Source of the DNA: a virus
IMG/VR virus record: IMGVR_UViG_3300047551_003251
Direction: 5' to 3' (one strand)
DNA length: 64,000 nucleotides
This document shows positions 3,598 to 64,000 of this stretch, in pieces. The number at the start of each line of letters is the position of its first letter. Within the stretch, counting starts at the first letter, position 1. A program made the position numbers and the translations under genes. The notes below the pieces were generated by a model. The model ran no database searches, was not told where the DNA came from, and worked only from the letters and a program-made list of their open reading frames with translations.

Positions 3598-5202
3598 ATG
3601 AGCGTTCGTACGCGTAATTGGTATGCTGCCCGCGGAACTCAAGCCTATCCGGTTGATGAGAACGCCACCGGTATAAGCGATGAAGGTACATCGCTGCCAC
3701 ACGATATTGTCGTGGACTGCTCATTAAACTGGGATCCAAGTTATGGGCAGTACGCGTTTATCAGTAGCGTAACTGTTACACCAAAGATCGTATCGATTAT
3801 CATCTCTGCGTGTAATAGCACCACAACGGTTACAGGGTTTACGCCGCTCGCTGTTGTAACGACGCCGCAGCCAGTTACCGCATTTACACATTATGCCGTA
3901 GAGGCGTTACAAGCTGGCGTGGCGGGATTTATCGTATTTGGTGACGTAGCCGATACGTATACTGGGCGGTTCAGCACACCTGCCCAAAGTTTACTGCGCC
4001 CAGCGTGCGCCTACCCCGCACACGGCTTCTCGGTGCCGACAGTTAGAAAGTATGGGCTGGATAATGGTTTGAAAGGACTGGTTCAACTTATCGGAGCTGA
4101 CGATATTGAAGTCGTACCTACGCAAGTCACGATCAATAACGTTGAAACAGATGTTATTGCGTTTAGATTACGTGCGTCAACAACGCTTAGAAATCCGCTT
4201 AGAGAATATATCGGCCCGTGCGGCAACAGACCTGAAAGCGAAAACTGTGTTGATGCCGGTATTGAAACCATTAACGAAATCGTCCCAGATGAGTTTGGAA
4301 ACATAAACATTATTTTCCAAGACATGATCGTAGGGCCGTATGGCGAGTCCTGTTCAAGCGAAGCCGCCGGTGTAACGATTGATCAAGAACTGGGGCTTGC
4401 CGATGTCTGTCCTGATAATGACTACGGTAAATTTTCCGGCAGTGCGCGTTGCAGCTTAAACGACTACAGTTTTTCGTCAGAATCATCCAGTTCTGGTTCC
4501 GGTAGCGAATCATCCGTTGGTGAATGCTCACTTCCGCTATCAATCGACTGGGATTACAGCAGCTCGTCACTAGCTGATACCGGGTTTGTTACAAAACTTG
4601 GCAGTTTTGAAAATCAAGAATACGCCGGTAGCCGCGTGTACGTAGCCACCGACAACACCACGCGTAACTTGGCACTTAAACAAGATTGCTTACTTCCAGA
4701 GTTGTACGGTAAAGAGATTTCAGTTGAATTTAGCTTGCCTAGCGATACGTTTCGTAACGCAATGCTGGTGTTTAATTACCGTACCGTGTTATCCGGCGGG
4801 GCGCACGTTGAGTATTTCGGTCTGGAAGCCGACGCGCGGCTTGGGCTGCTTAGTCTAATGCGATTTAATGGAACATCGCTGGTCACGGATTACGCTGTGC
4901 CGCTGTCTAACGGTATAGCAAAAGACCACTGGTACAAACTTAGAGTTAAGGTCGCACAGCAGTCTGAAACTGTTACATGCCTGTATCTTGAAATTACAGG
5001 TGTTACAAACACTAGCTGGCCGGGCGTAGCGTTTACATTCTTAACTAAAAAGTATTACTACGGCGAACATCGTTTTTATGGCATATCTGCCTTACGCACA
5101 GCCGCGCGCTTTGACAATTTCATACTTAAAGACGTAAGCCAAGCTGGCATTTGTACAGGACTTGGTGGGTTGTTTGGACCTATTGGCGGAGCAACGCCAT
5201 GA
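3598..5202 (+). CDS. Tail/baseplate-like protein (paralog 2) with Ser-rich linker and C-terminal beta-sandwich/lectin-like domain
   Basis: ETINEIVPDEFGNINI tail motif; SSESSSSGSGSESS linker; C-terminal HWYKLRVKV...GISA...ARFDNF resembles a ConA/LamG-type fold. Confidence 0.55.
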   Translation: MSVRTRNWYAARGTQAYPVDENATGISDEGTSLPHDIVVDCSLNWDPSYGQYAFISSVTVTPKIVSIIISACNSTTTVTGFTPLAVVTTPQPVTAFTHYAVEALQAGVAGFIVFGDVADTYTGRFSTPAQSLLRPACAYPAHGFSVPTVRKYGLDNGLKGLVQLIGADDIEVVPTQVTINNVETDVIAFRLRASTTLRNPLREYIGPCGNRPESENCVDAGIETINEIVPDEFGNINIIFQDMIVGPYGESCSSEAAGVTIDQELGLADVCPDNDYGKFSGSARCSLNDYSFSSESSSSGSGSESSVGECSLPLSIDWDYSSSSLADTGFVTKLGSFENQEYAGSRVYVATDNTTRNLALKQDCLLPELYGKEISVEFSLPSDTFRNAMLVFNYRTVLSGGAHVEYFGLEADARLGLLSLMRFNGTSLVTDYAVPLSNGIAKDHWYKLRVKVAQQSETVTCLYLEITGVTNTSWPGVAFTFLTKKYYYGEHRFYGISALRTAARFDNFILKDVSQAGICTGLGGLFGPIGGATP

Positions 5203-5948
5203 GCGAACGCGTTCAAAACTTTGAATTTAGAGATGACTACAGAAGTTCGCACTACCCGTTTTCTGATAGTGCCGGCCGCATCAGTAATGAATACCGGCGC
5301 GTGATTGCGGCGGGTACGTTTATTGATGCACTGCTTTATCCTATCGGTGCTACCTCCAACGTGTACCTGTCGCAAATCGACATTACCGCACAGTTTGCCA
5401 CATTTAGTCTTGCAGACCTGCGGCGCCGTGTGCTGGCTACCGGAGTTGTCGATTTGCTGGACGCGCCTGACATAATCTATTTTTACGACAACTACTCAAG
5501 ACCAGCGGGTACGATTGTAGCGGCACCGCTGTCGCTATCGCAGTTTAGCGCCTGGGAACTTGGAACGCATACGTTCAGCAGCGTGCAAACTGAGTTTGTA
5601 GCTTCTTGCCTTAAAATTCCAGTCAATAACGGCGTACAAGGTTTTACGACAGAAACCGAAGAATTGTTTGCCGGCGATGTGTATCTACTGGGTGAAAACG
5701 GCGTCACGCTCACCGCAGCTGGCGACGTAATTACGGTACACGCAGTCGGCGATCCTCTCTATCGCAGAGTTGAATGCTTACCAACTGCTAAGTTTGTTCC
5801 TCCAAGTTTCTTTTTGACAATCAACGGTTGCCCGCCTGATCAGTATGGCAACTTCAACATTACCGTAGGCGACAACATTACGGCAGACACGATTGTGCGC
5901 GTGGTACAAACCGACAGCGGTTTAGAGATAAGAGCGATAGGTACATAA
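5199..5948 (+). CDS. Tail/baseplate-like protein (paralog 3)
   Basis: Start moved to ATG 5199 (ATGA overlap with the previous stop); HYPF, LTINGCPPDQYGNFNI motifs. Confidence 0.55.
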   Translation: MSERVQNFEFRDDYRSSHYPFSDSAGRISNEYRRVIAAGTFIDALLYPIGATSNVYLSQIDITAQFATFSLADLRRRVLATGVVDLLDAPDIIYFYDNYSRPAGTIVAAPLSLSQFSAWELGTHTFSSVQTEFVASCLKIPVNNGVQGFTTETEELFAGDVYLLGENGVTLTAAGDVITVHAVGDPLYRRVECLPTAKFVPPSFFLTINGCPPDQYGNFNITVGDNITADTIVRVVQTDSGLEIRAIGT

Positions 5949-6901
5949 TGTCTAGAGCACCAGCATACAACGAAAATCAATACCGCGATTATCCGTTTAT
6001 AACGGTAGTGCAGCCTATTGATAGCAACTCCAGCGCCAGTGCTTTGTTTGAGCATCTACCTTCAGCAGCTATTGTAGATTTTGGCTGCATCATGGACTTA
6101 GACGCCAATTTTAGTGAGGGCGATTATGTATACCTCGATAAGATTGAACGCGACGGCGCAATTTTAACTTTCTACTTTGGCTGCACTTCCAATACAGAAC
6201 AGTTAATCTTTGCCCGCGACACAGCAACTGCAGCAGAATGGGAAATACAGTGGGTTGAATCTGAAATAGTTGAAGGCCCGTCTTACGACAGCCAGATTGA
6301 AGATAACGTTGAAGTGCCTGTATGCCGGACTGAAGGCGCGTGGCGTGGCTTTTTAGTAACTGGCAAATTTGATGAGCTACTGACGCTCATAGCTGACGGC
6401 GATACGTTAACATTTGCAACCGGACTGTGGCAAATTGAGCCGTCAAAAATTCAAAACATTTACAAGCACTATGTGCGCAGCGTAACTGTACTAAATCGAA
6501 AGCGCACGCTGGTTACAGATGAAACTGTGAACTACGGTGTTGTTGTTTACGACGCGTGCTTAAACGGTAACTTGAAGTTTAGAGAAGGTTACAACTGCTC
6601 TATTTTACAGAACGACGCAGCTAATCAGCTAATATTTAAAGGTGCAGTCGGCGCGGGTCAAGGAGAGCCGTGCGCAGAGGTGTCGTTAAGTATTGGAGAA
6701 GTGCCACCTGATGACGGTTCGTATCTAACTGGCGGGCCACGTTGCGGCGACGTACTTAAAACCATTAACGGGAAGGGTGGTAAAAGCATAACTATAAAAG
6801 GCGGACCTGGTTTTACCGTAGAAGCAGACCCAGAGACGTCAACGTTAACAATAACACGTGACCTATCGCAATTTACAAAATGCGGGTCTAACGTAACATG
6901 A
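5948..6901 (+). CDS. Tail/baseplate-like protein (paralog 4)
   Basis: DYPF, LPSAAIVDF, GAGQGEPC, LKTINGK motifs; coupled starts and stops. Confidence 0.55.
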   Translation: MSRAPAYNENQYRDYPFITVVQPIDSNSSASALFEHLPSAAIVDFGCIMDLDANFSEGDYVYLDKIERDGAILTFYFGCTSNTEQLIFARDTATAAEWEIQWVESEIVEGPSYDSQIEDNVEVPVCRTEGAWRGFLVTGKFDELLTLIADGDTLTFATGLWQIEPSKIQNIYKHYVRSVTVLNRKRTLVTDETVNYGVVVYDACLNGNLKFREGYNCSILQNDAANQLIFKGAVGAGQGEPCAEVSLSIGEVPPDDGSYLTGGPRCGDVLKTINGKGGKSITIKGGPGFTVEADPETSTLTITRDLSQFTKCGSNVT

Positions 6902-11273: not shown

Positions 11274-12272
11274 ATGCCAGCAGTTGAACGCGGATTCACA
11301 ATAACCCACACAACCAGCCACTACATTTATGGCCGTTATGACGGTGTGCGGGTACGTATCAGTGTGGACGAGGCGTGTAATGTAACGCCTAAGATATTTG
11401 CTTACCGCATGTTGCCTGTGGATCCTAATACAGGCGCAGCAGAAGGGCATTTTAGCCACATCTGCTCATCTGTAGATTTAGCCGAGTACCCAGAAGATGC
11501 CCCTGTACCCGGTGCCTCGCCGGCGTGGTTTCGCTTAAACTACGTAGATGTAATTTTGCGGTCATGGGCGGAAGCTTTGGACTTTATTGACGTTGTATAC
11601 GAGGATGTCCGCAGTTTGAAAGATAGCTTGGACAACATGGATGAAATAGTCGGTACAACGCAAATTACAATTGGTGCAATCTGCCCTGTAGATAGTTCAT
11701 CGTCCAGCGTATCCAGCAGCAGTAGCTCATCCAGCAGCCAAGTGTATGAGTCTTTTGTAGTAACTGCTGCACCGGCTGAATCTCGCGGCTTTGGCGCTGG
11801 TGTAGAATGGGTAGATGCGGCAGTTACATTACCCGGTGGCGCTTTAAGTCAGGTATTACTTATGTACGGCTTTGATTTTACTGAAATTCCAGCTGATGCC
11901 GTTATCCGTGGGATTATCGTATCGCCTAGTTTACGCTGGGCTGACAACGAAGCATCGTTATCCAGCGCAAGCGCCAGTGCATCTGCAACAGATTACTGCC
12001 CTGAGCTGATTTACGCGACCGTACACCACCCAGAACAAGGTATGGGCACTGATCCACTGTCTTCAGTTTGCGTAAGCGGACCAGCGTTTGAAAACTACGA
12101 GTACGGCGCAGATGATGAACTTTGGGGTAAATCCTGGACTGTAGGTGATGTACATCGCGGCGAGTTCGGTATTGCGCTAGTTGTACGTGCAGATACGCTG
12201 CCGGGTGAAATACCGATTGAAGCAAGTTTAGAGAACAGCACAATTACGATTCACTACGACATTCCGGTATGA
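11274..12272 (+). CDS. Hypothetical virion-associated protein with two Ser-rich tracts
   Basis: SD AAGGAAG; SSSSSVSSSSSSSSS (11694-11738) and SLSSASASASA (11955-11987). Confidence 0.6.
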   Translation: MPAVERGFTITHTTSHYIYGRYDGVRVRISVDEACNVTPKIFAYRMLPVDPNTGAAEGHFSHICSSVDLAEYPEDAPVPGASPAWFRLNYVDVILRSWAEALDFIDVVYEDVRSLKDSLDNMDEIVGTTQITIGAICPVDSSSSSVSSSSSSSSSQVYESFVVTAAPAESRGFGAGVEWVDAAVTLPGGALSQVLLMYGFDFTEIPADAVIRGIIVSPSLRWADNEASLSSASASASATDYCPELIYATVHHPEQGMGTDPLSSVCVSGPAFENYEYGADDELWGKSWTVGDVHRGEFGIALVVRADTLPGEIPIEASLENSTITIHYDIPV

Positions 12273-12586
12273 GCAAGCCTGCACCTCGGATGATTTATCT
12301 GGAAGACCGGGTTATCAACCAAATGCTTGGTGACCCGCGGATCCTCCAGCTGATCCCGTCGCTTAATAGCATTAAGGCAACTATTCAAAAGCTGAACTCC
12401 AACACCTGCGCGATGTGCCAGGCTGTTAAAAAACGGGAGCTGATTAACGCTACCCGTCTAGCTAAGCAGTATGTGCTTGGCGCTTCTCGCGATACGCAGG
12501 CTAAAGTAAAAGCGCTGATGCGTGTCGATCAAATTCGGGTTGTAGAAAAACCCGCGGCCGGCAAACCAATTATTCGCGTAATCTAG
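12269..12586 (+). CDS. Hypothetical protein (CxxC)
   Basis: ATGA coupling; CAMC. Confidence 0.6.
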   Translation: MSKPAPRMIYLEDRVINQMLGDPRILQLIPSLNSIKATIQKLNSNTCAMCQAVKKRELINATRLAKQYVLGASRDTQAKVKALMRVDQIRVVEKPAAGKPIIRVI

Positions 12587-12589
12587 CGC

Positions 12590-13096
12590 TTAACTCAACT
12601 GCTGAATTTTGTGCGTTTCCAAATAAGCTATGGCCTGCTGCAAGCTGGTGCTGTTGTCTTTGAAATGCCCAAGCCCCTTGTTGCAACTGGCGCATAAAAC
12701 GCCGCGAATGTGGCCGCGCGCATGGCAATGATCTAAGTGTGGCTTGTTTTTAGAATCAAACTTAACCGCACAGATTTCGCAGCAGGGTTGGCTGCAGTAC
12801 TGCTCGTACTCCTCTAAGCTGATCCCAAATTTAGTTTTCGCGTGCCTTCTCCGTCTGTCTCGTGATAGTTTTTCATAATTTTTATGGTAGTACGCTTTCT
12901 GATATTCATTCCATTTCTTGCTGTTTTTCCTTTGCCATTCTTGAGTGCATTGAATCTGGCATTGTTTGCAGAAGCTACTCGCACCATTTTTATGACTAGA
13001 GTTCCGATGAAACTCAGTTTTTAGTAGCGTTCTTTTACACCTAGAACATGTATGTTCGCTTGTTGTCGCTGCCTCGCTAGTTTTGATTTTGGTCAT
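12590..13096 (-). CDS. Free-standing HNH endonuclease, recombination endonuclease VII family
   Basis: CSRC...CKQC N-terminus; CEIC...HLDHCHARGHIRGVLCASCNKGLGHFKD; start moved to ATG 13096 after GGGA. Confidence 0.85.
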   Translation of the reverse strand: MTKIKTSEAATTSEHTCSRCKRTLLKTEFHRNSSHKNGASSFCKQCQIQCTQEWQRKNSKKWNEYQKAYYHKNYEKLSRDRRRRHAKTKFGISLEEYEQYCSQPCCEICAVKFDSKNKPHLDHCHARGHIRGVLCASCNKGLGHFKDNSTSLQQAIAYLETHKIQQLS

Positions 13097-13200
13097 AACA
13101 ATCCCTTGCGTGTAAAACATTTTGCTGCGTATGGCAATCCTAACAAACAAAACAACTATAAAGAAGCTGTCAAACATGGTGCTAATTTATTGAAAAAAAC

Positions 13201-13215
13201 GCGTCATATAAGGTG
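13201..13215 (+). promoter_or_regulatory. Conserved upstream motif GCGTCATATAAGGTG (copy A), putative phage promoter
   Basis: Exact copy at 63330-63344, two-mismatch copy at 13862-13876; all preceded by an A-tract and followed by an SD and gene. Confidence 0.6.
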
Positions 13216-13290
13216 ATCGTACTTAGTTAGTACGTTGGGTAAACCAAGCACCCATTAAACACTTGCTGCTTGGAAAAAGGAGGACGTATG
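13201..13290 (+). repeat. Duplicated structured leader, copy A
   Basis: Homologous to 13862-13956 with compensatory stem changes; ends in AAAGGAGGAC-ATG. Confidence 0.75.
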
Positions 13291-13557
13291 TCTAGGCTGA
13301 TTGAAAGAATGTTGTCTTGCCTGGCGATCAGTGCGGTTATTGGTTGCGTAGCAGCCTTAACGCCGATCAAACAACAAGTGGTTGTAACAACATCCACTGA
13401 CGCGCGTTACATTGTAGAATTTAACTGTTCTATCGCCGGTTGGTTTGAGCGAGAAGAACAGTTAAACGCTTTAATTGTAAACCGCACTGCTAGCCAAGAA
13501 GCAATTCGCGATGCTTTTGAGGCTACCGGCCTCATTTGTACCGTCAAGGAGCTGTAA
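13288..13557 (+). CDS. Hypothetical protein with N-terminal hydrophobic/signal-like segment
   Basis: SD AGGAGG before ATG 13288. Confidence 0.7.
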   Translation: MSRLIERMLSCLAISAVIGCVAALTPIKQQVVVTTSTDARYIVEFNCSIAGWFEREEQLNALIVNRTASQEAIRDAFEATGLICTVKEL

Positions 13558-13839
13558 ATGTATCAGCTCGAACAGTGGGCACTGCGTACGCTGCCCGGTT
13601 CTTTCATAGCACCAGAAGCCGCAGATTTGGCGCTAACCGGGTATGTCTTGGATCACCCAAAACATGCCCCAGACAAGATGATCTGCACTTCTCCAATCGT
13701 GCAGGTCGAAGGTAAACGTGTCACTACTTCTAGTGGTAGCGTTTACATCTTGGGCGAGCCTGAAGAGGGCTACGCCCAATATTGCCGAGAAATCGGCCTG
13801 CCTATCGACCCTGAGCAGCCAATCAGGGTCAAAAAATAA
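13558..13839 (+). CDS. Conserved-looking phage hypothetical protein
   Basis: TAAATG coupling; GYVLDHP..ICTSPIV...VTTSSGSVYILG. Confidence 0.7.
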   Translation: MYQLEQWALRTLPGSFIAPEAADLALTGYVLDHPKHAPDKMICTSPIVQVEGKRVTTSSGSVYILGEPEEGYAQYCREIGLPIDPEQPIRVKK

Positions 13840-13861
13840 CACCTTAATTGCCACGAAAACC

Positions 13862-13956
13862 GCGGCATATAGGGTGAACCATACTTAGGTAGTATGGGTC
13901 GGGTAAACCTGCGCACCCGTTTAACACTTGCATCGCGCAGAAAAGGAGGACTTATG
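13862..13956 (+). repeat. Duplicated structured leader, copy B (includes promoter-motif copy B, 13862-13876)
   Basis: GCGGCATATAGGGTG...CATACT-taggt-AGTATG...CGGGT-aaacctgcgc-ACCCG...AAAAGGAGGACTT-ATG. Confidence 0.75.
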
Positions 13957-14067
13957 TCCATTGATCTTGCTATTGTTGGATCCATCGCCGCTGCAGCAGC
14001 AGCGGTTATCGGCTTTGCGATGGGATACATCCGGGGGTGCGAAGAGCGTCGCCGGGAAGAAAGCTAA
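13954..14067 (+). CDS. 37-aa single-TM small protein missed by the ORF track (MSIDLAIVGSIAAAAAAVIGFAMGYIRGCEERRREES)
   Basis: Perfect SD AGGAGG, ATG 13954, TAA 14065-14067; hydrophobic helix followed by a charged tail. Confidence 0.75.
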   Translation: MSIDLAIVGSIAAAAAAVIGFAMGYIRGCEERRREES

Positions 14068-14076
14068 ACCAAGTCC

Positions 14077-14500
14077 GGCGGGACGTTAAACACGCATTAT
14101 TCCCTGCCTACACATGGGCCAGTAAATGTGTAGGTAAATCCCACGGTGGTTCACTCTCGTGGTGTCAGTACTAGACAAGCTGACGATATACCTAGTGAAT
14201 GGCGTTGCAGTGATGAACTGCGGTGTCGGTACTCTTTACCCGCTTAGCTCCTGGTCAGAGCGAAGCAAACTACGTTTTGTGTCGAGACCTGACGAGGTCG
14301 GTAAACATACGTCGATCGCCTAATACCAGCTTTTGGTGGTAATTAGGATCGTAAACCATGTACCAAAAGTAAAGGGGTACATACCCGTAGTCAAAGGATG
14401 CAGCGGAGGGGCATGGCTCCGCAACGGTATTATTCCCGGCGCGAGCCGGGCTCCATTGCCCCACCAGGATTGCAAGTGTTCCTGGTGGGGTTTTCTTTTG
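14077..14500 (+). ncRNA. Candidate large structured RNA or cis-regulatory leader, unknown family
   Basis: At least 11 consecutive stem-loops (e.g. CCTACACAT/ATGTGTAGG, CCCGGC-gcga-GCCGGG) ending in an 11-bp terminator with a U-tract. Confidence 0.55.
14459..14500 (+). terminator. Rho-independent terminator
   Basis: CCCCACCAGGA/TCCTGGTGGGG followed by TTTTCTTTTG. Confidence 0.8.
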
Positions 14501-14513
14501 TTATCACACTTGC

Positions 14514-14552
14514 GCCGGGCATGGTATTGCAGGTTCGATTCCTGCACCGGCA
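14514..14552 (+). other. tRNA-like remnant (T-arm plus short acceptor-like stem, no D or anticodon arm)
   Basis: GCAGG-TTCGATT-CCTGC T-arm; GCCGG/CCGGC stem. Confidence 0.45.
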
Positions 14553-14668
14553 CTCCGCTCCAATCTGCAGGAGCAAATACGAATACGTGTGTATTCGTAT
14601 ATTCACTTGACGCCAGCGCTGTTCATGTGCGCTGGGTTGCAGATCGTAAAACTCGAAAGGAGAATAAC

Positions 14669-15277
14669 ATGAATAAGTTCGTAATTTTGAGCGTGTTGAC
14701 GATCATCGCCCTTGTCTTGACTGCGAGCAGCAATGCGCAGTCGTTCAGTCGAGCAGCGCTTGACGGGAACTGGGTGGCCACGTACATCGAACGGGACGGT
14801 AAACCCCAGTTAGATGCATACGCTAACGTTGGACCGGTGCTTAACATCCAGCACGGCGAGCGGGTCGAGATTAAGCGAAGTCCTGAAGGTTACAGGCAGC
14901 TGCGTACCGCAAATGAAACCATCAATCTGGGTATTAACCCAGGATGGTTTTACTGCGAATCGGAGTTGACCATCGGCAACAGTGATGGCTTTTACCGCTT
15001 TGAAGGCGGCAAGCTCTATCTGGTAGTAGTTGGCGAGGCTAATCGATGGGCGCTGCCGCCTACAATGCCAAAGCAAACTCGAATTAACGATAAGTTAACG
15101 CTTATCGTGCTTGAGCGAGCAGTGCCAGTCGAAGTTGCAAAGCCAGCGCCGGCTGCACCTGCAGCCCCTGCGGCTGCTCCTGCGGCTCCTGTTGCTCCTG
15201 CGGCTCCAGCCCCTGCTCCAGTCGCTCCAGAAGCGCCTGTTGCACCTGAAGCTACTGCGCCTCAACAGGCGCAGTAG
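14669..15277 (+). CDS. Secreted TIGR03067-like (Planctomycete-type) domain protein with Pro/Ala-rich tail
   Basis: SD AAAGGAG, ATG 14669; signal peptide MNKFVILSVLTIIALVLTASSNA; LDGNWVATYIERDGK...GFYRFEGGKLYL...LIVLER. Confidence 0.65.
   Translation: MNKFVILSVLTIIALVLTASSNAQSFSRAALDGNWVATYIERDGKPQLDAYANVGPVLNIQHGERVEIKRSPEGYRQLRTANETINLGINPGWFYCESELTIGNSDGFYRFEGGKLYLVVVGEANRWALPPTMPKQTRINDKLTLIVLERAVPVEVAKPAPAAPAAPAAAPAAPVAPAAPAPAPVAPEAPVAPEATAPQQAQ
15143..15262 (+). repeat. Coding low-complexity ~9-nt periodic repeat (APA/APV/APE)
   Basis: gctcctgcg-type units. Confidence 0.8.
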
Positions 15278-15307
15278 TAGCCACGCCGGGCTAACCGGCG
15301 TAACCAA

Positions 15308-15340
15308 TCCCTTGTGCTAAACACACGGGGGATTTTTTTT
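15308..15340 (+). terminator. Rho-independent terminator
   Basis: Imperfect TCCCTTGTG/CACACGGGGGA stem plus T8; preceded by hairpin ACGCCGG/CCGGCGT. Confidence 0.7.
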
Positions 15341-15458
15341 AGCTATCTGGCCGGCAGCTTATTTTCCAGCGTATAATCAAGGCCTCGCCGGAGGTCTTGG
15401 TTCCCCACCTTTAACATAACCAATCACGGTTATTTTTTTTAGCTCTCAGGAGTTTGTA

Positions 15459-15728
15459 ATGGCTATTGAAGTTTTAGACGTAAACGTAACCGGTCGTAAC
15501 GTAAAGGTTTTGGTTCGCGGTGATTCCAAGGATGAAGTAGAGTCCGCAGATGCTCGCCATAAAGCGATTGCAGAAGCGCAGGCCCGTGGTGTAAATAACC
15601 CTGGAATCTCCGGTTCTGTACTGGCATATCCTGTCGATACACAGAATGTTGAGATTGGATTGGACCGCGCGAAGACAACGGAAGCCGCGGGCTTCTGTGC
15701 TGAGATTCCGCTTGTAGGAATGCCGTGA
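15459..15728 (+). CDS. Hypothetical protein
   Basis: SD CAGGAG. Confidence 0.75.
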   Translation: MAIEVLDVNVTGRNVKVLVRGDSKDEVESADARHKAIAEAQARGVNNPGISGSVLAYPVDTQNVEIGLDRAKTTEAAGFCAEIPLVGMP

Positions 15729-22498: not shown

Positions 22499-22513
22499 CC
22501 AACAAGGATGACC

Positions 22514-22738
22514 ATGTTAGTACTTACGCGCAAAGCAAAGCAAAGTTTAAAGGTAGGAAACGATGTCACTATTCATTTAGTAAGTATCAGCGGTAACACC
22601 GTTAAGATAGGTATAGACGCTCCGCCTGATATACTTGTTTTACGGGGAGAGTTGGCGCCGCAGCAGGTAAATAAAAATCGCCCGCAGGAAACTACGGGCG
22701 ATGTTGCTGACTTTCCAGTTATTGAATACTTAATCTAG
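22514..22738 (+). CDS. csrA: Carbon storage regulator CsrA/RsmA homolog
   Basis: MLVLTRK..QSL.VG.DV.I.....SG..VKIGIDAP....V.RGEL. Confidence 0.9.
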   Translation: MLVLTRKAKQSLKVGNDVTIHLVSISGNTVKIGIDAPPDILVLRGELAPQQVNKNRPQETTGDVADFPVIEYLI

Positions 22739-62857: not shown

Positions 62858-63314
62858 AGCTGCGTTATTGCAAGATGCGGCCGAGCAGCAGTTAATGCGA
62901 CGGTTGTTAAACCAACAGTCGCAAAACAAGCCTACTGCGTTTTACTTGGTAGTCTGCAGTGATGATGCGGCCCCCAAGTTGCACAAATTTGATACGGTAG
63001 AAGCGCTTATTTCAGCGTTCAATCGTTTAGAGAATTCGCATGTGTTTGTGTTTGCGTTTATGGGGCATCACCTTCCAGTCAGCGTACCGCCGCATCGTTA
63101 TTTGATCACACCGATGGGTCCGCTTCCGATGTTTAACCCACCGTCTGTTGATAACTTACAAATAGATACGGTCGGTTATTTAGGTGACATGCACGCCGAA
63201 AATGTTATGTCTGAAGCTCTAGCTGAATTTGAAAATACTGCACCGCCGCCGGTAGTTAATAACAACTATGAAGCGGAAGAACCTGATGCAGATGACGAAC
63301 TTTCAGTTCACTAA
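62745..63314 (+). CDS. Hypothetical protein
   Basis: Start ATG 62745 after GGAG; 113-nt overlap with the previous gene. Confidence 0.6.
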   Translation: MTEETTPPSNHPQQESQDQIPQSTSDAQPQPSQIHHDKAALLQDAAEQQLMRRLLNQQSQNKPTAFYLVVCSDDAAPKLHKFDTVEALISAFNRLENSHVFVFAFMGHHLPVSVPPHRYLITPMGPLPMFNPPSVDNLQIDTVGYLGDMHAENVMSEALAEFENTAPPPVVNNNYEAEEPDADDELSVH

Positions 63315-63329
63315 ATTTTGGCAAAAATT

Positions 63330-63344
63330 GCGTCATATAAGGTG
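63330..63344 (+). promoter_or_regulatory. Conserved upstream motif GCGTCATATAAGGTG (copy C)
   Basis: Exact match to 13201-13215. Confidence 0.6.
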
Positions 63345-63399
63345 CGCTATTAGCTATGCGGATATAGCTAGGCGTTAACTTTATTAGGAGGCTTTTGCC

Positions 63400-64000
63400 A
63401 TGACGACGGAAAGAAAGTTTAAGTTTGATTCTCCTGAAGCCGCTGTGCAGTACGCGCAGATTTTGAAGCGCGATCGCAGTGTTGCGGAGTTGATGCGTCG
63501 AACCGTAGCATTCCAATGGATTACCTTAGACGGTAGTCCAGTCCCGGAATTTGCTAAACCGGGTGAAGTCGCCCTCGCCGTTGCGTCCAGTGGTAAACTG
63601 GACGATCGGGAAATATCCCGATTTACGGTGCTTCAATATGATTCAATTTTGGATCGCACTGGTGGAGTTCTGTGCGATTGGGATATGTGTCGTATTGCGC
63701 GGCACGTTGGTCCGCCCAACGTACCACTCGTAGGGCATTATTTCTTCAACGTGGCCTTGGCTTTGGACAAGGCGCGCGAGTCGGCTGCTCTAGCTGACAA
63801 TCTCCCGCCACTGAATTCTATATTTGAGGTTTTGCCTCAAGTTTACAACCGCGTAGCTTCAACGCTGGCAATGCCGGTTGTAAATACGACCGGTAAAATC
63901 CGTTTGGCTAACCAAGTGCTTCAAGCACTACCTCAGGATTATGCCAAATGTTCCATGCTTGAGCAGTTGCAAGCAGCTCGCGCCGCGCTGACAAGCACGT
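63400..64000 (+). CDS. Hypothetical protein, 3'-truncated by window edge (not in ORF track)
   Basis: SD AGGAGG, ATG 63400 (MTTERKFKFDSPEAAVQY...), open to base 64000. Confidence 0.75.
   Translation, partial: MTTERKFKFDSPEAAVQYAQILKRDRSVAELMRRTVAFQWITLDGSPVPEFAKPGEVALAVASSGKLDDREISRFTVLQYDSILDRTGGVLCDWDMCRIARHVGPPNVPLVGHYFFNVALALDKARESAALADNLPPLNSIFEVLPQVYNRVASTLAMPVVNTTGKIRLANQVLQALPQDYAKCSMLEQLQAARAALTST

Follow-up and report, generated by a model that had tools for sequence, protein, structure and literature searches.

The stretch of viral DNA studied here (IMG/VR record IMGVR_UViG_3300047551_003251), whose full length of 64,000 nucleotides (nt) we call the window, carries on its + strand two genuine repeats of one composite element, copy A at 13182–13290 and copy B at 13843–13956. 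Each copy consists of a promoter-like box, an untranslated leader and the start of a small gene. Judged from its compensatory base changes, the RNA fold predicted for the leader is under selection and is a real element. We consider the two copies to be, with a probability of roughly 0.55, portable expression heads, which combine a repeated promoter-like box with a selected fold of the 5′ untranslated region (UTR) within a hypervariable accessory-gene region.

When 13180–13300 and 13841–13966 were aligned with MAFFT, the mean column identity was 84% over 126 columns. A covariance model built from the A-type copies only matched copy B at 50.5 bits (E ~1e-11) and gave no other match in the window; because B was recovered by a model made without it, the repeat lies far beyond chance. 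The two copies share the motifs TWAACACTTGC and AAAAGGAGGAC-N-TATGTC. An initial annotation, made from the sequence, had located both copies correctly, and the shared features that it listed (promoter motif, two hairpins and short motifs up to the start codon) are all present where it placed them. Its limits for the module, however, were too narrow at the 5′ side: the true start lies about 20 nt farther upstream, where the conserved block begins with an extra box, CTAATTT at 13182–13188 in A and CTTAATT at 13843–13849 in B.

The promoter-like box of copy A (13182–13216; CTAATTT, 7 nt, AAAACGCGTCATATAAGGTGA) fits the consensus of 19 distinct instances described below. It is followed by hairpin P1 at 13218–13234, in which CGTACT and AGTACG enclose the loop TAGTT and form 6 pairs, with one double change relative to B, and then by an H-type pseudoknot at 13236–13273. 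Stem P2 of the pseudoknot, the second hairpin of the initial annotation, pairs TGGGT (13236–13240) with ACCCA (13250–13254). A third helix, P3, which that annotation had not seen, pairs the loop of this hairpin with the 6 nt directly 5′ of the A-tract and Shine–Dalgarno sequence (SD), CCAAGC (13244–13249) with GCTTGG (13268–13273). The loops are L1, AAA at 13241–13243, and L3, TTAAACACTTGCT at 13255–13267. The A-tract, the SD GGAGG (13279–13283) and the ATG (13288–13290) of a gene for 89 amino acids (aa) occupy 13274–13290. The layout of copy B is the same. Its box (13843–13877; CTTAATT, 7 nt, AAACCGCGGCATATAGGGTGA) is followed by P1 at 13879–13897 (CCATACT, loop TAGGT, AGTATGG) and by the pseudoknot at 13900–13940, with P2 formed by CGGGT (13900–13904) and ACCCG (13915–13919), P3 by CTGCGC (13909–13914) and GCGCAG (13935–13940), L1 by AAAC (13905–13908) and L3 by TTTAACACTTGCATC (13920–13934). 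The part from 13941 to 14067 then holds an A-tract, GGAGG (13945–13949), ATG (13954) and a 37-aa gene for a single-pass membrane peptide.

Since P2 and P3 cross, the fold predicted for both copies is an H-type pseudoknot. It has a P2 of 5 bp, an L1 of AAA or AAAC, a P3 of 6 bp that abuts the 3′ strand of P2 with zero spacer, and an L3 of 13–15 nt. L3 reads UU(A/U)AACACUUGC, and AACACUUGC is an invariant loop motif in both leaders. The GGAGG lies outside all three helices, past the A-tract, 5–6 nt (A) or 4–5 nt (B) 3′ of the end of P3 (13273 and 13940, respectively).

The base changes between the copies carry the argument for this fold. Pairs of P1, P2 and P3 were counted on the alignment given by the covariance model, which was made from two A-type copies with P1 and P3 annotated. 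The three helices comprise 17 pairs, and 100% of the cells are paired in four distinct sequences. Five double changes were found (one in P1, one in P2 and three in P3), together with one change from U–A to a U·G wobble in P2. The covariation that had been claimed for the two hairpins amounts to one double change in each stem, and the wider claim of a selected structure has gained from P3, which brings the account to three helices, five compensatory pairs and no broken pair. Although P1 and P3 guided the fitting of this alignment by the model, the P3 of copy B is nonetheless plain in the raw sequence at the equivalent position, and the model made without B places it in register with zero non-standard pairs. 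In a control with the 3′ partners shifted by 1–3 columns there were no double changes, and pairing was 24–40%. Ten random substitutions within the stems left every pair intact in 43 of 3,000,000 trials. When the 15 observed substitutions were instead spread at random across the whole alignment, none of 3,000,000 trials kept all pairs and gave at least five double changes. Between A and B the stems have changed at 10 of 34 positions, compared with 5 substitutions in 51 unpaired columns (7 columns gapped). The energies of the individual helices P1, P2 and P3 are modest, from −5 to −9 kcal/mol.

Further copies of the leader come from related metagenome contigs, which we refer to by L numbers. A relative of copy A's 89-aa protein with 94% identity led to L023, a strain variant with three leaders: leader A (5914–6003) is that of copy A in the window, leader B (about 6572–6669) is that of copy B, and leader A′ (5060–5151) precedes an unrelated 144-aa gene. 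A′ differs from A by an extra T in the linker, a change of ACCCA to GCCCA (U–A to U·G, which keeps the pair) and a C-to-T change in L3. Another contig, L025 (989 nt), stops inside a B variant whose P1 carries a further change from U–A to U·G. The check that had been proposed for the element, a covariance model run over the phage and its relatives, has therewith returned A, A′, B and a truncated B variant at a contig end, and the changes in A′ and in the partial B are wobble-compatible. Over the window and 13 related loci, the model gave no match beyond these.

Broader searches for the fold were negative. No further leader copies were found in IMG/VR with the leader DNA pattern, the promoter pattern and two proteins as queries, and megablast and blastn against GenBank phages found nothing similar at the DNA level. 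Four matches of the DNA pattern in GTDB genomes were rejected as chance, having neither the P2 pairing nor other leader features. JGI metagenomes, entered through a neighbouring 332-aa protein, yielded one relative, L014, in which the box is present with other leaders. Rfam 15 (including preQ1, SAM-II/V, int-alpA and C4) gave no matches at the gathering threshold in the window or its relatives; with E values of up to 10, the segment 13100–14400 gave only two chance-level matches (a Tetrahymena snoRNA and a hammerhead) and no riboswitch. No tRNA or tmRNA was called in the window or in the variable regions of the relatives. Public data hold only three to four sequence variants of the leader.

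The box is far more widely distributed than the pseudoknot leader. Its consensus, CTAAATT-N7-AAAACGCGTCATATAnnGTGA, was derived from 19 distinct instances that occur clade-wide in related metagenome contigs, the relatives having been reached via the AAA ATPase of the phage and neighbouring proteins. Each hypervariable region has 2–3 copies of the box, each ahead of a small gene or a non-coding RNA, and every inspected instance lies in an intergenic gap and is oriented toward the next gene or RNA. Wherever a cassette precedes it (copies in L004, L014 and L023), the box is directly 3′ of an intrinsic terminator with a T8-AGCT tail; copies A and B in the window have no terminator directly upstream. 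A third box copy in the window, C (63311–63402, + strand; CTAAATT ... GCGTCATATAAGGTG, box part 63311–63345), is followed by a different leader, with its own hairpin, TTAACTTTA, GGAGG and an ATG at 63400. The resemblance of the box to sigma-70 promoters is limited to TAnnGT, a possible −10 element, and a half-conserved TTG 16 nt upstream, and the conservation of 45 nt extends far beyond them. A T7-type promoter was suggested by the resemblance of TATAGGGTGA to TATAGGGAGA; we rejected it as the main explanation, since both bases that follow TATA vary and CATATA is preceded, 17–23 nt upstream, by an additional conserved box. From the sequence, we infer that the box is a promoter, and the position of the transcription start likewise. 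For P1 to be present in the RNA, the start must be at or before 13217 in A and 13878 in B.

Some further features of the box may be recorded here. TTAGCT recurs about 8 nt past it. Its invariant GTG, a feature of all copies, opens a mini-ORF (open reading frame; 13213–13230 and 13874–13888 in the window) of 3–6 codons in most inspected leaders and a longer one in several, and the sole instance in which the first base of the GTG is altered reads ATG (L015, position 911). This mini-ORF may be a coincidence with a −10 element. In L028, a more distant relative, one copy of the box lies about 55 nt upstream of an IS605 OrfB/Cas12f-like (TnpB) gene in the same variable region (5482–6673).

The genes behind the leaders have little in common. 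Cassette A (13288–13839, + strand) encodes the 89-aa protein, which has a signal-peptide or lipoprotein-like N-terminus (13288–13557), and a 93-aa protein (13558–13839) of a widespread small family with 834 representative relatives; neither protein matches a Pfam family. The three first genes behind the pseudoknot leader (89, 37 and 144 aa) have no Pfam match and, in agreement with the earlier statement that the downstream genes are unrelated, every pairwise blastp E-value among them is above 0.4. They belong to a hypervariable stretch between a conserved 105-aa gene (12269–12586) and an 89-aa gene (15459–15728), the content of which differs in every relative. Up to 12593, identity between the window and L023 is 99%, and it resumes at this level from 13201, where the promoter core starts. 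The interval is occupied in the window by a minus-strand gene for endonuclease VII and in L023 by a cassette composed of the A′ leader, the 144-aa gene, a 68-aa gene and a terminator. Homology between the window and L001 stops at 13216. The homology breaks at 13201 and 13216 thus mark the edges of the promoter core as junctions of modular exchange. The initial annotation had offered a cassette-recombination leader as one of its two explanations, and in substance this is borne out, as the element heads exchangeable cassettes and homology breaks at the promoter core. Its other explanation, a cis-regulatory RNA, was not substantiated: all three helices leave the ribosome-binding site (RBS) free, and the analysis identified neither a ligand or protein nor a switch.

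We propose that the element works on two layers. In the DNA layer, the CTAAATT-N7-AAAACGCGTCATATAnnGTGA box would start a transcript for whatever gene follows and, because it is repeated, would double as a homology patch for the gain, loss and swap of cassettes. In the RNA layer, the transcript would begin with a 5′ UTR of about 75 nt, with P1 near its 5′ end followed by the H-type pseudoknot, the A-tract and a strong GGAGG free of all three helices. With this fold, any gene that the phage has just acquired may obtain a 5′ end that is defined and resistant to nucleases, along with an RBS clear of upstream pairing; the simplest role of the fold would be that of a stabilising, context-independent leader.

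Several observations weigh against this proposal. Nested-only folds of single copies are no better than those of shuffled sequences. Such unremarkable z-scores are expected for a small pseudoknot, yet thermodynamics alone then provides no argument for the fold. The five double changes all split just two lineages, the A-type copies and B, and may therefore represent few independent events. An E. coli-type sigma-70 consensus scan of 12500–15600 calls neither copy, although this consensus may not be that of the host, and no RNA polymerase (including T7-type) or sigma gene was found with Pfam or PHROGs among the approximately 45 window ORFs scanned, the contig extending past the window. If TAnnGT is taken as the −10 element, a start about 7 nt downstream falls in the 5′ strand of P1, and P1 would therefore be absent from the RNA. 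Nested folding of the leader with 45 nt of coding sequence, by a method that cannot model a pseudoknot, shows no unusually open SD and so lends no support to a role as an insulator. Additionally, the strong conservation of L1 and L3 suggests sequence-specific recognition, which would be superfluous in a purely passive leader.

This last point bears on a different explanation, which we consider possible but somewhat unlikely, namely that the pseudoknot is a regulatory receiver. Its invariant loops (L1 AAA and L3 UWAACACUUGC) would bind a trans factor that tunes the translation or stability of all cassettes bearing them; loops more conserved than stems are the usual signature of a recognition surface. 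A protein, whether of the phage or of its host, might be the partner, as might a small molecule or an RNA. The conserved intrinsic terminator at 14459–14498 (+ strand) offers a concrete candidate in its loop, which might act in trans or, for the transcript of copy B, in cis. This 11-nt loop, TTGCAAGTGTT (UUGCAAGUGUU when written as RNA), is complementary to L3 of both leaders, perfectly so over 9 nt in A and 10 nt in B (−12.8 and −13.9 kcal/mol), and only about three equally good pairing sites exist on the + strand of the 64-kb window. The terminator hairpin is kept in five relatives, its loop core GCAAGTG being invariant though the stem varies, and ACTTGC occurs 10–17 nt past the terminator, directly 5′ of the next RBS, in all five. 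The C-to-T change in L3 of A′ would still allow pairing with the terminator loop, as G·U. A second, unrelated leader family behind the box in relatives, a long hairpin of 18 pairs with wobble-type changes, also keeps AACTTGC invariant and unpaired, in an internal loop. The match between L3 and the terminator loop is suggestive of an RNA–RNA contact, but its two sides are both invariant, so that it allows no covariation test, and the complementarity is down to 6–7 nt in relatives. More generally, the free RBS and the lack of any alternative (switch) structure argue against a receiver, as do the absence of a riboswitch match in Rfam even at E up to 10 and the absence of a common pathway among the downstream genes. 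The phage does encode a CsrA-family RNA-binding protein of 74 aa, present in all close relatives as well (window ~22500–22730; L001 15817–16041; L004 16303–16527; PF02599, precomputed on the relatives' genes). We rejected CsrA as the partner of the leader, since no hairpin loop contains the GGA that a CsrA site requires and copy A has a second GGA that B does not keep. In a narrower and rather improbable form of the receiver explanation, the leader would be the receiving end of a phage-internal RNA–RNA circuit, in which AACACUUGC kisses the GCAAGUGUU loop and one phage RNA tunes all motif-bearing cassettes. The terminator would then end a non-coding RNA or tail transcribed from the same box in every relative, the AACUUGC leader family of the relatives would belong to the same circuit, and in copy B the contact would link the two ends of one transcript, its 5′ UTR and its 3′ end.

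An element that acts at the DNA level only seems to us quite improbable. On this explanation the box is a promoter or operator and a recombination linker, the palindromes at the transcription start are a protein-binding site or a cruciform, while the RNA fold is idle. It would account for the strain breakpoints exactly at the box, for the hairpin-forming palindrome that begins 1–7 nt past the box in every leader type, for the TTAG that stands at a near-fixed 5–8 nt from the box whatever its place in the hairpin, and for the possible start inside P1 with a TAnnGT −10 element. However, P2 and P3 lie 20–60 nt downstream of the box, and a crossing pseudoknot is meaningless in a DNA duplex. Their pairing has survived four double changes and a G·U-type change, which pairs in RNA and not in duplex DNA, and the arms of P1 differ between the copies, which makes a sequence-specific operator unlikely. 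Least probable of all, in our estimation, is that a promoter with its untranslated leader was simply duplicated in recent times and that the compensatory changes are a coincidence or an alignment artefact. The presence of just two diverged lineages, the fitting of the counted alignment to P1 and P3 and the unexceptional single-sequence fold energies speak for a coincidence. Against it stand the alignment of B by a model made without B, with all pairs standard, the P3 of B that is visible without any model, random-substitution nulls of ~1e-5 or less, and the two further single changes in A′ and the partial B variant, both wobble-compatible. We retain the portable expression head as the preferred explanation.

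Other features of the variable regions are reported here as observations. The endonuclease VII-like gene (12590–13177, minus strand) is found in the window and in L001 at the site of L023's A′ cassette, and its start points into the promoter region of copy A. The terminator loop GCAAGTG and the downstream ACTTGC (14459–14515 in the window; also in L001, L004, L014 and L015), both invariant, could pair over 6–8 bp and form a second pseudoknot before an SD. Besides various small genes, the box in relatives directly heads a non-coding stretch, a putative RNA of about 450 nt (~130 nt in L015, up to ~480 nt), that ends at the conserved terminator. These stretches (L001 6564–7048, L004 7947–8385, L014 3875–4300 and L015 1272–1400) differ in their 5′ parts and share their 3′ parts, and none has an Rfam match. 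Inside that of L014, at 3911–4026, is a tRNA-like piece, for which ARAGORN made no call. Its elements are an acceptor-like stem (GACACTG/CAGTGTC), a D-arm-like helix (CGTC/GACG), a T-arm of canonical form (GCGAG-TTCGATT-CTCGC) and an extended, long middle arm. The window has a T-arm-like GCAGG-TTCGATT-CCTGC at ~14543–14559. After the conserved terminator, a small, very basic ORF (MRTRR...) is found in L001 (7071–7220), L004 (8407–8505), L014 (4326–4475) and L015 (about 1420). In the window its place is taken by the tRNA-like stretch together with a protein of 202 aa (14669–15277), which looks secreted and has a tail rich in Ala and Pro. In all inspected cassette terminators the U-tract passes straight into AGCT (TTTTTTTTAGCT): in the window at 15329–15342 and 15429–15442, in L004 at ~7900, in L014 at ~3832 and ~4532, and in L023 at ~5872. 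TTTTTTAGC occurs just twice in the 64-kb window, both times at the terminators at 15329–15342 and 15429–15442.

The accessory ("moron") genes of phages are a source of new host-interaction functions, and little is understood of their expression once they have arrived in a new genome. In this uncultured phage lineage of freshwater type, a repeated promoter unit resembling the promoter-early stem-loop (PeSL) of T4-type phages would both express and shuffle cassettes and, in contrast to the PeSLs, is coupled to a leader with a selected RNA pseudoknot. Should the fold prove to be a stabiliser or insulator, it would be a natural, compact and gene-independent expression leader. If it is true that the invariant loops receive a phage RNA or protein, the phage could control many unrelated acquired genes together.

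Small pseudoknots next to an SD are familiar from the preQ1-I, SAM-II and SAM-V riboswitches, H-type folds in which residues that separate the 5′ strand of P3 from the 3′ strand of P2 bind the ligand. The likeness of the leader to these is one of topology only: a stem of 5 bp, a loop that pairs with sequence immediately 5′ of the start region, and a third, A-rich loop for which the minor groove of stem 1 is a possible site. In the leader there are zero residues between these two strands. The riboswitches sequester the SD in the second helix on ligand binding, whereas here it is outside the helix. Besides the negative Rfam search, none of the downstream genes is connected with the metabolism of queuosine or S-adenosylmethionine (SAM).

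The leader of T7 gene 10 combines a 5′ stem-loop, the "epsilon" enhancer UUAACUUUA and a strong SD. The order of parts is the same in our element, with a putative phage promoter, a 5′ hairpin, a U/A-rich motif beginning UUAAC and a strong GGAGG. In the leader of copy C, TTAACTTTA at 63375–63383, 6 nt upstream of GGAGG, is identical to the "epsilon" translational enhancer of T7 gene 10. The T7 leader, however, is without a pseudoknot. In addition, the scan of window ORFs found no gene for a T7-type RNA polymerase, and the position after TATA is not a conserved G.

The translational operator of T4 gene 32 consists of a 5′ pseudoknot and an unstructured, UUAAA-rich ribosome-binding region, of which a UUAAA-repeat tract of more than 40 nt is required, and it acts autogenously (PMC535899). 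Like this operator, our element places a small H-type pseudoknot 5′ of an exposed RBS in a phage mRNA leader, and L3 of copy A contains UUAAA. The T4 operator precedes the gene of its binding protein, whereas here the pseudoknot precedes three unrelated small genes and lies only 5–6 nt from the A-tract and SD.

At the level of the cassette, the element fits the moron concept. Morons of lambdoid and other phages are promoter–gene–terminator units between conserved genes, a concept of Hendrix and Juhala discussed in PMC2839356. Here, autonomous small accessory genes that have a promoter-like box and a terminator of their own are placed between two conserved genes, one encoding 105 aa and the other, at 15459, encoding 89 aa, and their content varies among close relatives. 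Classical morons have no shared flanking sequence, whereas here the box is found on every unit and the folded leader on some.

The closest described system in behaviour is the PeSL cassette of T4-type phages, in which recombination maps within the PeSLs (Arbiol et al. 2010, PMC2839356; Comeau et al. 2014, PMC4122927). Both are conserved composite units of about 100 bp that are repeated in a hyperplastic region and flank small orphan genes, and both bring along a promoter, a stem-loop, an SD and a start codon. In both, strain differences are cassette indels or replacements, here with junctions in the repeated unit at 13201 and 13216. A terminator hairpin upstream of the unit, as in PeSLs, is seen for several copies in L004, L014 and L023, whereas copies A and B of the window have none directly upstream. 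PeSLs have a strong sigma-70 early promoter with −35, −10 and an AT-rich upstream part, whereas the box described here fails an E. coli-type scan. The stem-loop of a PeSL is a terminator upstream of the promoter, and here it is a covarying pseudoknot downstream, in the RNA leader. Finally, the phage is not a T4-type myovirus: it has no DNA match among GenBank phages, and its best phage matches at the protein level are 27% to mycobacteriophage ATPases. Because of the different lineage, the missing sigma-70 consensus and the structure that lies downstream of the promoter in the RNA, the element is not a member of the PeSLs. The description of the element as undescribed therefore applies to its RNA fold, which has no Rfam match, and not to the kind of element, as PeSLs and morons have already been described. 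The fold is new and confined to one uncultured phage lineage, and the element as a whole is a variant of a known phage cassette architecture.

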